In this document: positions 61,555 to 63,999 of the stretch, in pieces
Numbering within the stretch: position 1 is the first letter of the stretch
How the letters are laid out: each line of letters begins with the position of its first letter
NCBI GenBank assembly: GCA_023245775.1
Contig: JAHFJR010000003.1
Span: 3,608 to 67,607, forward strand
From: Candidatus Peribacteria bacterium
GTDB lineage: Bacteria > Patescibacteriota > Gracilibacteria > Peribacterales > Peribacteraceae
Reading direction: 5' to 3'
DNA: 64,000 nucleotides
Notes under the pieces: generated by a model
Told to the model about the DNA's origin: nothing
Seen by the model: the letters and a program-made list of their open reading frames with translations, nothing else
Databases searched by the model: none
Program-made: the position numbers and the translations under genes

Positions 61555-63999
61555 TTACTGTACCATCTTCTGTAGGTACTCGCCAGTGTAGCTCTCTTTT
61601 GACGTCGCGACCTCTTCCGGCGTTCCGGTGGCGATGATACGGCCACCCTCGTCGCCACCGTCGGGTCCGATGTCGACCACATAGTCAACGGACTTCACGA
61701 CGTCGAGGTTATGTTCGATCACGAGCACGGTGTTACCCTTCTCCACGAGGCGCTGGAGTACATCGAGGAGGCGTTTGATGTCCTCGAAGTGCAGGCCTGT
61801 CGTGGGTTCATCGAGAATGTAGAACGTTTTGCCCGTTGCGCGTTTCGTGAGTTCGGTCGCCAGCTTGATGCGCTGCGCTTCGCCTCCGGATAACGTCGTT
61901 GCACTCTGTCCGAGATGGATGTAGCCGAGGCCAACGTCGCTGAGGGTCTGCAGTTTATTCTTGATCGTCGGGAAGGCCGCGAAGAACTCGAGTGCTTCGG
62001 TGATAGTCATGTCCAGCGCTTCGGCGATATTCCTCCCTTTGTATGTCACCTCGAGCGTCTCGCGGTTGTAACGTTTCCCTTTGCACGTCTCGCAGATCAC
62101 GTACACATCGGGCAGGAAGTGCATCTCGATGCGCTTCAGTCCGTCACCTTCACACTCCTCGCAGCGGCCACCAGACACATTGAAACTGAATCGTCCGGGT
62201 TTGTAGCCGCGTGTCTTCGCTTCGGGCGTCATCGCGAAGACGTCACGGACTTCCGTGAAGATGCCCGTGTAGGTGGCGGGGTTGCTTCGCGGAGTTCGGC
62301 CAATCGGGGATTGGTCGATGACGATGGCTTTGTCGAGGTGCCCGAGACCTTTGATCTCCTTGAAGTTCTGGCCTTTGGAGTGTGCCTTGTTCAGGATCCG
62401 CTGCAGTTCCGGAGCGAGAATACCGTGGATGAGGCTCGATTTCCCCGAGCCCGAGACGCCGGTGATCCCAATCAGACAGCCGAGGGGAAGTTTCACATCG
62501 ACGTTCTTCAGATTGTGATGAGTGGCGCCGAGAATTTCGACGAACTTGCCATTGCCTCTCCTGCGTGTCTTCGGTACGGGGATCTTCTTCTTTCCGCTCA
62601 GGTACTGCCCCGTCACCGAGTTCGGATTCACAATCAGTTCCTTTGGTGTGCCCTGTGCGACGACCTCGCCGCCATGCTTGCCGGCACCGGGTCCGATCTC
62701 GAGGAGGTAGTCCGCTGCTTCGATCGTCTCCTGATCATGCTCCACGACGATGACGGTGTTGCCGATGTCGCGGAGGTGATTCATCGTACCGATGAGCTTC
62801 GTATTGTCTCGCTGATGCAGTCCGATGCTCGGCTCATCGAGGACATAGAGGACGCCCTGCAAAGCAGAGCCTATCTGCGAGGCGAGGCGAATGCGTTGCG
62901 CTTCACCCCCAGAGAGCGTCGCTGCGGAACGATTCAGTGTCAGGTACTTGAGTCCTACGTTCTCGAGGAAGTTGAGGCGCGAGATGATTTCGCTAATGAC
63001 TTTGCGGACGATGGCGTACTCGTAAGTGGAGAGGGAGGAATCAAAGGAAACAGAGGAGTCAGAGGAAACAAAGGAGTGGGCATCCTTTGTTTCTTTTGTT
63101 TCCCTTGTTTCTTTTGCTTCTTTTGATCGTGGAATCAGTCCCTCGAAAAACTTCTTCGCTCCCGAAATGCTCATCTCTGTCCCATCCACGATATTCTTGC
63201 CGCCGACGGTGACGCCGAGGATCTCCTTCTTGAGTCTCTTCCCTTCACACTTCGGACACGGAAGCTCGAACATGTACGCTTCGATCTGGCTTCTGGTGTA
63301 GGCGCTATCCGTCTCACGGTGACGCCGCTCAAGGTTCGGGATCACACCTTCGTACGTCGTCTGGTAGTGACCGTCGAATTTCTCGGAACTGAAGTCCACA
63401 TCGACTTTTTCGGGGTACCCGTAGAGCACGATCTTCTGGATCTCGGGAGAGAGGAGTCGCCATGGCACTTCCAACGAGAATTTCGCTTTCTTCGCGACGG
63501 CCTCGAGTGTCTGGACCATGAAGCTCATACGGCCGGCAGACGTGGCCCATGGGTGGATCGCCCCTTCGCTGATGGTGAGGTCGGGGTTCGGGACGATCCC
63601 AGAGACGTCGATCTGCAGAATATTGCCGAGACCATGACAGTGATCGCAGGCTCCATGTGGCGAATTGAAGCTGAAACTCCTCGGTTCGATCTCGGGGATG
63701 CTCATCTCGGGGTAGTCGGGGTTCACAAATTTGTTCGAAAATTTCAGCAGTTCATTCGTATCGTTATCGAGGACGTACAGCAGTCCTTCGCCTTTCCTCA
63801 GAGCCAATTCCACGCTGTCACTTAATCGCGTTCGGTTCGGATTCGGAGACTCGACCTCCGTGCCATCACTCAGTTTCTCCTTCACGGGTTCGAAATCGCG
63901 GATGATCATGCGGTCCACGACGATCTCGATGTCGTGTGCCTTCTTCGGGTCAAGATTCGGTTCCTCGTCCGTCGTCACGATCACGCCATCGATACGCAT
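61555..63999 (-). CDS. uvrA: Excinuclease ABC subunit A, N-terminally truncated by the window edge
   Basis: Two ABC signature/Walker sets (GVSGSGKSS, LSGGEAQRI twice) and Zn-finger Cys pairs. Contains a ~30-aa low-complexity insertion encoded by a palindromic repeat. Confidence 0.95.
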   Translation of the reverse strand: MRIDGVIVTTDEEPNLDPKKAHDIEIVVDRMIIRDFEPVKEKLSDGTEVESPNPNRTRLSDSVELALRKGEGLLYVLDNDTNELLKFSNKFVNPDYPEMSIPEIEPRSFSFNSPHGACDHCHGLGNILQIDVSGIVPNPDLTISEGAIHPWATSAGRMSFMVQTLEAVAKKAKFSLEVPWRLLSPEIQKIVLYGYPEKVDVDFSSEKFDGHYQTTYEGVIPNLERRHRETDSAYTRSQIEAYMFELPCPKCEGKRLKKEILGVTVGGKNIVDGTEMSISGAKKFFEGLIPRSKEAKETRETKETKDAHSFVSSDSSVSFDSSLSTYEYAIVRKVISEIISRLNFLENVGLKYLTLNRSAATLSGGEAQRIRLASQIGSALQGVLYVLDEPSIGLHQRDNTKLIGTMNHLRDIGNTVIVVEHDQETIEAADYLLEIGPGAGKHGGEVVAQGTPKELIVNPNSVTGQYLSGKKKIPVPKTRRRGNGKFVEILGATHHNLKNVDVKLPLGCLIGITGVSGSGKSSLIHGILAPELQRILNKAHSKGQNFKEIKGLGHLDKAIVIDQSPIGRTPRSNPATYTGIFTEVRDVFAMTPEAKTRGYKPGRFSFNVSGGRCEECEGDGLKRIEMHFLPDVYVICETCKGKRYNRETLEVTYKGRNIAEALDMTITEALEFFAAFPTIKNKLQTLSDVGLGYIHLGQSATTLSGGEAQRIKLATELTKRATGKTFYILDEPTTGLHFEDIKRLLDVLQRLVEKGNTVLVIEHNLDVVKSVDYVVDIGPDGGDEGGRIIATGTPEEVATSKESYTGEYLQKMVQ
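63034..63127. repeat. Imperfect ~94-nt palindromic element of the GGAAAC-repeat family, inserted in frame in uvrA
   Basis: Central perfect IR GAAACAAAGGA-GTGGGCA-TCCTTTGTTTC (63065-63093). 19-nt identity with 51471-51489 and 15-nt identity with 12377-12391. Confidence 0.85.

Follow-up and report, generated by a model that had tools for sequence, protein, structure and literature searches.

We report here on an insert in the uvrA gene of a Candidatus Peribacteria bacterium (GCA_023245775.1, hereafter G000), whose genome of 1.21 Mb is assembled in 42 contigs and has about 53% G+C. The insert lies towards the end of the window, by which we mean the whole stretch of 64,000 nucleotides that was analyzed (C9:3608-67607, on contig C9), and it is one copy of a dispersed family of short tandem units which in this gene carries arrays of a 9-nt unit and is translated within a loop of the protein. 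The uvrA frame codes for 814 amino acids (aa) inside the window and for 970-971 aa on contig C9, and its product matches solved UvrA structures at E = 1e-95. A linker of 36 codons separates the helix ...AKKFFEGLI from the helix YEYAIVRKVISEI... within signature domain I of UvrA, in the context ...FFEGLI-PRSKEAKETRETKETKDAHSFVSSDSSVSFDSSLST-YEYAIVRKV..., and translation thus bears out the first-pass annotation of this DNA, which had placed an extra peptide between FFEGL and IVRKVISEI.

The same annotation had described the region 63034-63127 as an imperfect palindrome with a perfect central repeat, and this is what is found: an 11-bp core (GAAACAAAGGA at 63065-63075 and TCCTTTGTTTC at 63083-63093) encloses a 7-nt loop, and over their full length of 38 nt (63038-63075 and 63083-63120) the two arms are 79% complementary. 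To this description we can add the 9-nt periodicity of the arms. The insert is composed of a purine-rich array of about four nine-base units with the consensus RGARDCARR, the 7-nt loop, and a complementary pyrimidine array. On the sense strand of uvrA the arm at 63083..63127 is the 5' purine arm, coding for SKEAKETRETKETK, and the arm at 63034..63075 is the 3' pyrimidine arm, coding for SFVSSDSSVSFDSS; the peptide reads in frame as KEAKETRETKETKD-AHS-FVSSDSSVSFDSS. Folding gave -18.7 kcal/mol for the insert as DNA (z = -3.3) and -30.0 kcal/mol as sense RNA (z of about -5.8 against mononucleotide as well as codon shuffles), the shuffled controls of this work being mononucleotide, codon or arm-wise and preserving composition. 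Inspection of the sequence shows no stop codon in the six frames of the 9-nt unit, and as 9 is divisible by three, an array can be read through whatever its number of units. A 403-aa open frame antisense to uvrA (61915-63126, plus strand) terminates within the insert, and comparable long antisense frames are present over uvrA in relatives (L009, L022); as genes these frames were rejected, since they are shadows of the coding strand.

Insertion site in the UvrA protein

In UvrA of G. stearothermophilus (2R6F) the insertion site falls between residues ~465 and ~467, i.e., between FFDGL and ELTEKEAQIARL, and the flanking segments, which had been said to lie close together in UvrA, are adjacent there. 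Mapping on 2R6F and on an AlphaFold2 model computed from a 40-sequence alignment places the site between two helices of signature domain I. In the model a helix at residues 112-120 is followed by the low-confidence insert and then by a helix at 159-181, and the predicted local distance difference test score (pLDDT) falls below 50 at residues 137-154, between these two confident helices. Alignment of orthologs supported the insertion site: bacteria outside the Peribacteria group have 0-3 residues at this position (FFxxLxL[ST]E), the peptide is not carried by unrelated lineages, and the two Peregrinibacteria/Patescibacteria outgroups (L074, L076) have a linker of 10-12 aa. The insert is best explained as a disordered segment of about 25-30 residues, in which one arm provides KET-type repeats and the other SFV/SDS-type repeats. 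Most likely it has no role of its own in repair, as near relatives are without an insert and the sequence of the insert is not conserved.

Table 1. Positions of the uvrA insert, its relatives and other features discussed in the text (window coordinates, unless a contig of G000 is given)
Feature	Position	Strand	Description or basis
uvrA coding sequence	61555..64000, continuing beyond the window end to the end of contig C9	-	single open frame
Variable linker of UvrA, 36 codons, PRSKEAKETRETKETKDAHSFVSSDSSVSFDSSLST	63025..63132	-	translation; alignment to 2R6F; low pLDDT; indel hotspot
Purine-rich arm, GGAATCAAA / GGAAACAGA / GGAGTCAGA / GGAAACAAA	63034..63075	+	direct-repeat family D1, 9-nt spacing; inverted repeat I1; period-9 scan
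Loop, GTGGGCA, 7 nt	63076..63082		sense GCC CAC within ...GAT GCC CAC TCC... (D-A-H-S)
Pyrimidine-rich arm, TCCTTTGTT / TCTTTTGTT / TCCCTTGTT / TCTTTTGCT / TCTTTTGAT	63083..63127	+	direct-repeat family D2, 9-nt spacing
Single-arm array, AGAAACAGAGGAATCAAAGGAAACAGAAGAAACAAG, 36 nt	51463..51498		intergenic, 88 nt upstream of tmRNA gene; pyrimidine strand is sense
Single-arm array, 45 nt	12370..12414		occupies the 54-nt spacer of two same-strand genes; pyrimidine strand is sense
Two-armed nonamer hairpin	C29:9275-9389		intergenic
Two-armed nonamer hairpin	C33:6762-6905		intergenic
Two-armed nonamer hairpin	C22:132-229		intergenic
Two-armed nonamer hairpin	C20:15665-15742		intergenic
Two-armed nonamer hairpin	C28:14787-14820		intergenic
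S10 ribosomal-protein operon	C42:9938-15389		three nonamer loci
2-Oxoacid:ferredoxin oxidoreductase gene	C15:4123-4701		our reading
Y1 transposase-domain open reading frames (PF01797)	C25:18341-18661 and C26:1440-1874		42.6 and 32.5 bits; HUH-like motif MPDHCH
tmRNA gene	50969-51375	-	ARAGORN

A dispersed family of nonamer arrays

A genome-wide BLAST search with the insert identified 16 other loci at 30 bits or more, as compared with 0-1 loci for each of 20 arm-wise and 20 mononucleotide shuffles and three for the reversed sequence; the matches are therefore not a coincidence of composition. A scan for three consecutive RGARDCARR units detected 18 arrays at about 15 loci where 0.33 were expected, and the further genomic copies that had been anticipated are thus present. 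Genes were placed with our own hexamer-based caller, a crude tool which yielded 1,081 genes and a coding fraction of 89%; on this placement 11 of the nonamer loci are in short intergenic spacers and four are translated. Two of the intergenic loci are in the window and had been listed as exact matches to the insert at 51471-51489 and at 12377-12391. Both proved to be parts of longer arrays: the first is an exact match of 20 nt (51470-51489) within the 36-nt array, and the second extends to 26 nt at 92% identity (12375-12400) within the 45-nt array, which ends 6 nt short of the downstream ATG and is flanked by genes that the first-pass annotation had named livH and livM.

In all six of the untranslated single-arm arrays the pyrimidine strand is sense for the flanking genes, and five of them stop 3-23 nt ahead of a start codon, the sixth being the array 88 nt 5' of the tmRNA gene. 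Five intergenic loci are two-armed hairpins (Table 1) with spacers ranging from essentially none (on contig C28) up to about 63 nt, several of which hold small palindromes of their own. The four translated copies, all in frame, are located in the UvrA loop, in the K/E-rich C-terminal tail of NusA past its last Pfam domain (...KETKETKESGETKE...), in a C-terminal extension of about 35 residues past the Pfam domain of L29, where a different reading frame is used (...GKQKKQRNQK...), and in a Ser-rich linker of an LTD/PKD/SNase protein (...SSFVSSASFDSFVSS...). The peptide derived from the unit accordingly varies, being KET in UvrA and NusA and KQKKQR in L29. The S10 ribosomal-protein operon accommodates three nonamer loci, which are directly upstream of S19, directly upstream of L4, and in the L29 tail; L4 of this operon also has a long K/A-rich tail.

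Only the 9-nt unit is common to the copies, as array lengths, spacers and reading frames all differ between them. The initial view of the uvrA insert as a single element of about 94 nt consequently stands as regards the palindrome and fails as regards a fixed sequence, the element being two arrays of a 9-nt unit, homologous to other loci through the unit family.

Recurrent occupation of the UvrA loop in related species

In an alignment of UvrA from 28 relatives the loop is the only internal indel hotspot. Among 42 UvrA sequences of the Peribacteria clade the linker ranges from 3 to 46 aa; it is at least 28 aa long in 17 of them, and the short linkers have 10-15 aa. The DNA of 13 of the 17 long linkers folds as a hairpin (z of -2.9 or lower), and linkers of 18-24 aa gave z from -2.4 to +1.2. 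Tandem units identified in uvrA of relatives, which are mostly heptamers and often form perfect runs, include CTCACAG (four copies, G005), AGTCTCA (4.7 copies), ACTTTCA (four copies, G013) and AGCGAAC (4.4 copies), with CCGCTAT and AGCGGGT as further heptamer units of the arms, and units of 9 nt are present in the linkers of L047, L064, L066 and G000. Often one arm is a perfect tandem run and its partner arm is degenerate. Single-arm arrays were detected in G009 (AGAAGGC, 4.6 copies) and G018 (CTCAAAG, 4.4 copies), neither of which is a significant hairpin.

The distribution of these inserts on a UvrA tree built with the linker removed rejects the insert as an ancestral conserved feature. The close relatives L042, L044 and L043 have two unrelated hairpins and none, L046 has a hairpin in a clade otherwise characterized by 10-aa linkers, and L049 has a hairpin where L048 is without one. 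The UvrA loop has been re-occupied recurrently in related species by different repeat families, and the site is a hotspot across the family, which goes beyond what had been proposed from the window. The units can resemble native sequence of the same site: the CTCACAG unit of L042 compares with a native CTCACAA in its relative L043, and the CTTTCAA unit of G013 is identical to the conserved native Leu-Ser codons CTTTCAA.

Perfect runs of four to five heptamer copies within uvrA were noted for L002/L042, L046, L004/L051, L055, L007 and L010. As seven is not a multiple of three, gain or loss of one heptamer unit would shift the uvrA frame, and the heptamer-bearing uvrA genes of relatives could be switchable by slippage; this does not apply to G000, whose unit is of 9 nt. 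The short linker of L043 (CCTTCTCCTTCGAAAGGAGAGGAGGG) contains a mini-palindrome, CTCCTT-CGA-AAGGAG, and that of L018 also folds as a small stem. Such mini-palindromes suggest that the basal linker of the clade, of about 10 aa, may itself be the remnant of an old insertion.

Resident repeat families and a second gene with arrays

In both of the genomes that were tested, G005 and G013, the uvrA insert matches a repeat family resident in its own genome. The G005 insert detected six loci beyond uvrA in G005 at E < 0.001, one of them over 32 nt at 100% identity, and for the G013 insert about 30 were found in G013, among them an intergenic hairpin of full length, placed by eye between smpB and recR. 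In-frame copies, likewise recognized by eye from translations, were found in G005 in an IleRS-like gene, at the C-terminus of a class II aminoacyl-tRNA synthetase and in an RsmB-like methyltransferase, and in G013 in GuaA and an RsmB-like gene. In G005 a number of unrelated proteins share almost identical peptides that derive from the repeats, AMSDELRAMS and SSKLKAQSS. When foreign uvrA inserts were used to search G000 they returned 0-5 loci, with the exception of the G013 insert, which returned 13 because AAAGTGG-type units are also the main heptamer family of G000. Matches to the period-9 pattern number 59 in G007, 41 in G000, 15 in G005, 14 in G016 and 13 in G009, and the pattern is almost absent from other families of the class.

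A second gene with comparable behavior is the one we read as a 2-oxoacid:ferredoxin oxidoreductase, analyzed in G000 and in relatives (loci L123-L136), in which arrays flank the conserved segment ILLIGWGSTKS, with a G-rich array 5' of the GWGSTK segment and a C-rich array 3' of it. The same two sites are occupied by other unit families in G005, G013, G014, G008, G010 and G015, and neither array is present in G002-G004, which belong to the same genus, or in G009 and G012, which belong to other genera. In G005 and G013 the two arms, separated by some 75 nt of native coding DNA, pair with each other (z = -5.6 in G013), and in G014 they come from different families. At this site too a unit compares with native codons, CTCAAAG with CTGAAAG or CTCAAGG.

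Genome-wide arrays and leaders

The 9-nt family of uvrA is a minor one in a genome saturated with arrays of 7-9-nt tandem units. Tandem Repeats Finder, run on the whole genome with arrays counted from 2.8 copies upwards, identified 108 arrays of period 7, 46 of period 9, 23 of period 8, 15 of period 6, and three of period 10. Among the heptamers the units AAAGTGG (29 arrays), AAGAATT (12), AAGGTGG (7) and AACCACT (6) predominate, many other heptamer types have a single occurrence in the genome, and the top unit of period 9 is GGAAACAAA. A typical array has about four to five units (about 30 nt), and the usual arrangement is a G-rich array, a spacer and a complementary C-rich array: 18 of 23 neighboring array pairs are inverted complements and, as we read their units, each of the 18 places its G-rich arm 5' of its C-rich arm, a polarity which by the symmetry of inverted pairs holds on both strands.

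Predicted coding sequences contain 45 of the 108 heptamer arrays. Heptamers with stops on both strands are found six times in coding sequence and 15 times in intergenic DNA, as opposed to 26 and 18 times for stop-free units, showing that units with stops are depleted from genes. Among arrays that lie up to 60 nt 5' of a start codon, 32 are C-rich in the sense strand and 13 are G-rich (p = 0.007). This orientation fits the general composition of leaders in G000, where the 40 nt 5' of 825 predicted starts contain little G (13-20% near the start) and much C and T, with TCTTC, CTCTC and TCTCC as top pentamers. There is almost no Shine-Dalgarno signal, an SD-like tetramer being present in 14% of leaders as delimited by our own crude gene calls. 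A leader function of the C-rich intergenic arrays is a serious possibility.

Possible origin and spread of the arrays

On this evidence the uvrA insert is probably a copy of a genome-wide family of repeats built from tandem units of 7-9 nt, which occupies intergenic leaders and tolerant coding sequence. The arrays would lengthen and shorten by replication slippage, as indicated by perfect runs of about four units in one arm facing a degenerate partner arm, and the complementarity of the arms would be maintained by intrastrand template switching, i.e., quasi-palindrome correction. New or replacement arrays may be seeded where native codons resemble the resident unit, by ectopic template switching or by gene conversion from another array, and selection would then remove those copies which bring stops, break the frame or fall into structured parts of proteins. 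A MutL domain (PF01119) was found in none of 10 Peribacteraceae genomes by a search which found it in 11 of 14 controls and in two of six genomes from other families of the class. Missing MutL-type mismatch repair would favor slippage, template switching and seeding alike, since slippage would become more frequent and diverged repeats could recombine more readily. A dedicated enzyme is also possible, with the small Y1 (IS200/RAYT-like) proteins as candidates, but linkage lends it no support.

Several observations weigh against this reading. The exact matches of 20-21 nt between loci span about two units, which indicates a shared unit family and does not prove copying of multi-unit blocks; as such proof they were rejected, since a few unit variants would yield them anyway. 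No target-site duplications, terminal inverted repeats or conserved termini were found at the borders of the hairpin copies, and an exact-flank scan of metagenome contigs detected no strain variants with another array length. Absence of MutL is not sufficient, as other MutL-less families of the class are almost without arrays, and slippage alone leaves the sharp preference for 7-nt units unexplained. The strong orientation bias in leaders means that the intergenic copies at least could be functional and not selfish. Finally, the gene boundaries on which the placement of copies depends are those of our crude hexamer-based caller.

Were the arrays to originate purely locally, the linker would expand in place by slippage and fold-back copying with no transfer between loci, and the likeness among loci would reflect the same mutational bias acting on similar seeds. 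The resemblance of the units to native Leu-Ser or Leu-Thr codons in array-free relatives, repeated at the oxidoreductase site, is in keeping with this, as are the many heptamer types occurring once per genome, the frequent pairing of a perfect arm with a degenerate one, and an identity between loci that does not exceed about two units. We nevertheless consider such an origin unlikely, given that a specific 9-mer, with the same A/G variants, or a specific heptamer is present at 15-30 loci per genome, including non-coding spacers with unrelated neighbors, that the families are genome-specific, and that several unrelated G005 proteins share the near-identical peptides mentioned above.

It is quite improbable that the hairpin is instead a selected cis-element, acting on RNA pausing, processing or stability or as a DNA structure, or that the peptide is a functional appendage of UvrA, with the pairing of the arms under selection. 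Close relatives with linkers of 10-15 aa do without the insert (L043, L048, L057, L058, L072, L073), the peptide is not conserved, the arrays of G009 and G018 do not form significant hairpins, and the oxidoreductase arms of G014 are of different families. The antisense strand moreover folds better than the message, because the mismatches between the arms are G-T on the antisense strand. No Rfam family matched the insert, the search returning only sub-threshold generic hairpin matches to eukaryotic miRNA precursors. These results have to be set against the hairpins of differing sequence found at this site in 13 or more species, a pattern resembling compensatory change, the pairing of oxidoreductase arms across native sequence in G005 and G013, and the orientation bias of leader copies. 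A transcriptional terminator was rejected as well, the one terminator-like match being on the antisense strand and no better than in shuffles.

A classical non-autonomous transposable element, similar to a miniature inverted-repeat transposable element (MITE) or a REPIN and moved in trans by, e.g., Y1 HUH (IS200/RAYT-like) proteins, is very unlikely. G000 does have two Y1_Tnp open reading frames of about 145-170 aa above the Pfam cut-off, such frames are present in 17 of 25 relatives, and hairpin-forming dispersed repeats are known RAYT substrates (PMC3116915, PMC3733652). No array of period 7-9 was however found within 2.5 kb of either Y1 gene, save for an unrelated one at a contig end, and G005, which is 99% complete in eight contigs, has arrays and no Y1_Tnp match. 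The copies have neither a GTAG/CGTC head nor terminal inverted repeats nor target-site duplications, and their arms can be separated by native coding sequence. Across genomes there was no obvious correlation between the nonamer load and the number of Y1_Tnp copies.

Although assemblers can generate or collapse palindromes, a chimeric palindrome in this metagenome-assembled genome is practically negligible as an explanation, since the frame is open through the element and comparable in-frame hairpins are found at this codon position in over a dozen assemblies that were made independently in different projects.

Comparison with known repeat systems

By the anatomy of their sequences the closest analogues of the Peribacteria arrays appear to be the STRR and SDR repeats of cyanobacteria and the TAACTGA heptamers of Beggiatoaceae. 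STRR heptanucleotide repeats and SDR are reportedly found in heterocyst-forming cyanobacteria, where they are said to have been described by Mazel in 1990, Vioque in 1997 and Elhai in 2008, and STRR are reported to be present also inside a functional gene, rnpB. Common to both systems are few-copy tandem arrays of 7 nt at many loci, with several families per genome, mostly between genes. They differ in lineage and in the sequence of the units: cyanobacterial units include CCCCAGT, TTGGTCA and CAACAGT, and the top units of G000 (AAAGTGG, AAGAATT, AAGGTGG, AACCACT and GGAAACAAA) match neither these nor TAACTGA. The arrays of Peribacteria are, in addition, mostly inverted pairs of fixed polarity, and many are translated. 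Dispersed 7-nt tandem arrays are plentiful in G000, where period 7 accounts for 108 arrays; the period is 9 in the uvrA copy of this genome and 7 in the uvrA copies of relatives.

The TAACTGA repeats of marine Beggiatoaceae, for which a role in leaders has been proposed, are present in 2-6 copies a few nucleotides upstream of start codons, in intergenic DNA without canonical ribosome-binding sites, including that of ribosomal-protein operons (MacGregor 2015, PMC4679880). G000 similarly has start-proximal arrays in leaders with scant Shine-Dalgarno signal, and three of its roughly 15 nonamer loci are in the S10 operon. In Beggiatoaceae, however, there is essentially one unit, which contains a stop, and nearly all of the repeats are direct, whereas in Peribacteria there are many families, inverted pairs, and stop-free units that enter coding sequence. 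A doubtful extension of our reading would be that a process in Peribacteraceae keeps writing arrays of 7-9 nt at conserved seed sites, maybe sharing machinery with STRR and TAACTGA repeats, with C-rich arrays as translation-initiation leaders and permissive loops of the UvrA type as collateral targets, overwritten time after time by whichever family is current in the genome. Heptamer-unit uvrA genes would, if this were so, constitute a slippage-controlled on/off (mutator) switch.

Rickettsia palindromic elements (RPEs), to which the insert had been likened as a repeat tolerated in a loop, are palindromes of about 100-150 bp that form defined sequence families, encode a conserved peptide and are inserted in frame in housekeeping genes (Ogata et al. 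2000/2002, as summarized in PMC10969869). As in the case of RPEs, the uvrA family is a dispersed, multicopy and stable hairpin (about 15 loci; z = -3.3 for DNA, about -5.8 for RNA), it occupies intergenic sites as well as unrelated housekeeping genes in frame at fold-compatible positions (UvrA, NusA, L29 and the LTD protein, with five gene types recognized by eye in relatives), and there is no linked transposase. The fixed sequence of 100-150 bp and the conserved peptide of RPE-1 to RPE-10 are, on the other hand, absent: the arms are arrays of 7-9-nt units and copies are alike at unit level only, the families vary between sister species, the same protein loop is repeatedly re-occupied, and arms can flank native sequence. 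The phylum is also a different one (Peribacteria of the Candidate Phyla Radiation, CPR), and no relation in sequence is to be expected. The evidence therefore supports a repeat that is RPE-like in its behavior, its in-frame copies and its location in a low-pLDDT loop, and that falls outside the RPE sequence families.

Other systems are more distant. Repetitive extragenic palindromes (REPs) are recognized by a conserved tetranucleotide head and by their position around the RAYT gene (PMC3116915, PMC3733652). The Peribacteria repeats share with REPs and REPINs that they are short, imperfect palindromic and dispersed, that their sequence is species-specific and that the genome encodes a Y1 HUH protein; they have no tetranucleotide head and do not flank a RAYT gene, and they are not confined to extragenic DNA, as is shown by the four translated loci among about 15 of the nonamer family and by the 45 heptamer arrays, out of 108, in predicted coding sequence. 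The terminal inverted repeats of a parent IS and the target-site duplications that mark MITEs were not found, and the search for a parent element covered Y1_Tnp. PARCELs of Mollicutes and other microbes are domains of 25 residues arrayed in dedicated open reading frames, often those of surface proteins (PMC2996958), and resemble our repeats in being coding repeats with dyad-symmetric DNA of which both orientations can be read as protein; unlike our repeats, PARCELs do not occur as short inserts within leaders or housekeeping enzymes. A literature search for repeats of this kind in Peribacteria or Peregrinibacteria, made within a limited library, returned nothing relevant.

Implications

To our knowledge in-frame selfish palindromes in essential genes are textbook matter for Rickettsia only, and we know of no mechanism put forward since 1990 for heptamer tandem repeats of the STRR or TAACTGA kind. 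Both phenomena meet here in a genome of about 1.2 Mb for which some 1,100 genes are predicted and in which MutL was not found; this is a very small gene complement in which to seek a responsible enzyme. The dozens of sequenced relatives with different arrays in the same loops constitute a natural series of gain, loss and replacement from which the mechanism might be read, and the inserts mark naturally tolerated insertion points in UvrA, NusA, L29, aminoacyl-tRNA synthetases and other core proteins. For the annotation of CPR genomes it is relevant that such inserts inflate protein length and mimic low-complexity domains or lineage-specific functional extensions. As a minor observation from the window, the tmRNA predicted by ARAGORN downstream of the 36-nt array has an unusually long tag peptide, ADKFADSVIGRAIAKMNVFAPAMAMA.

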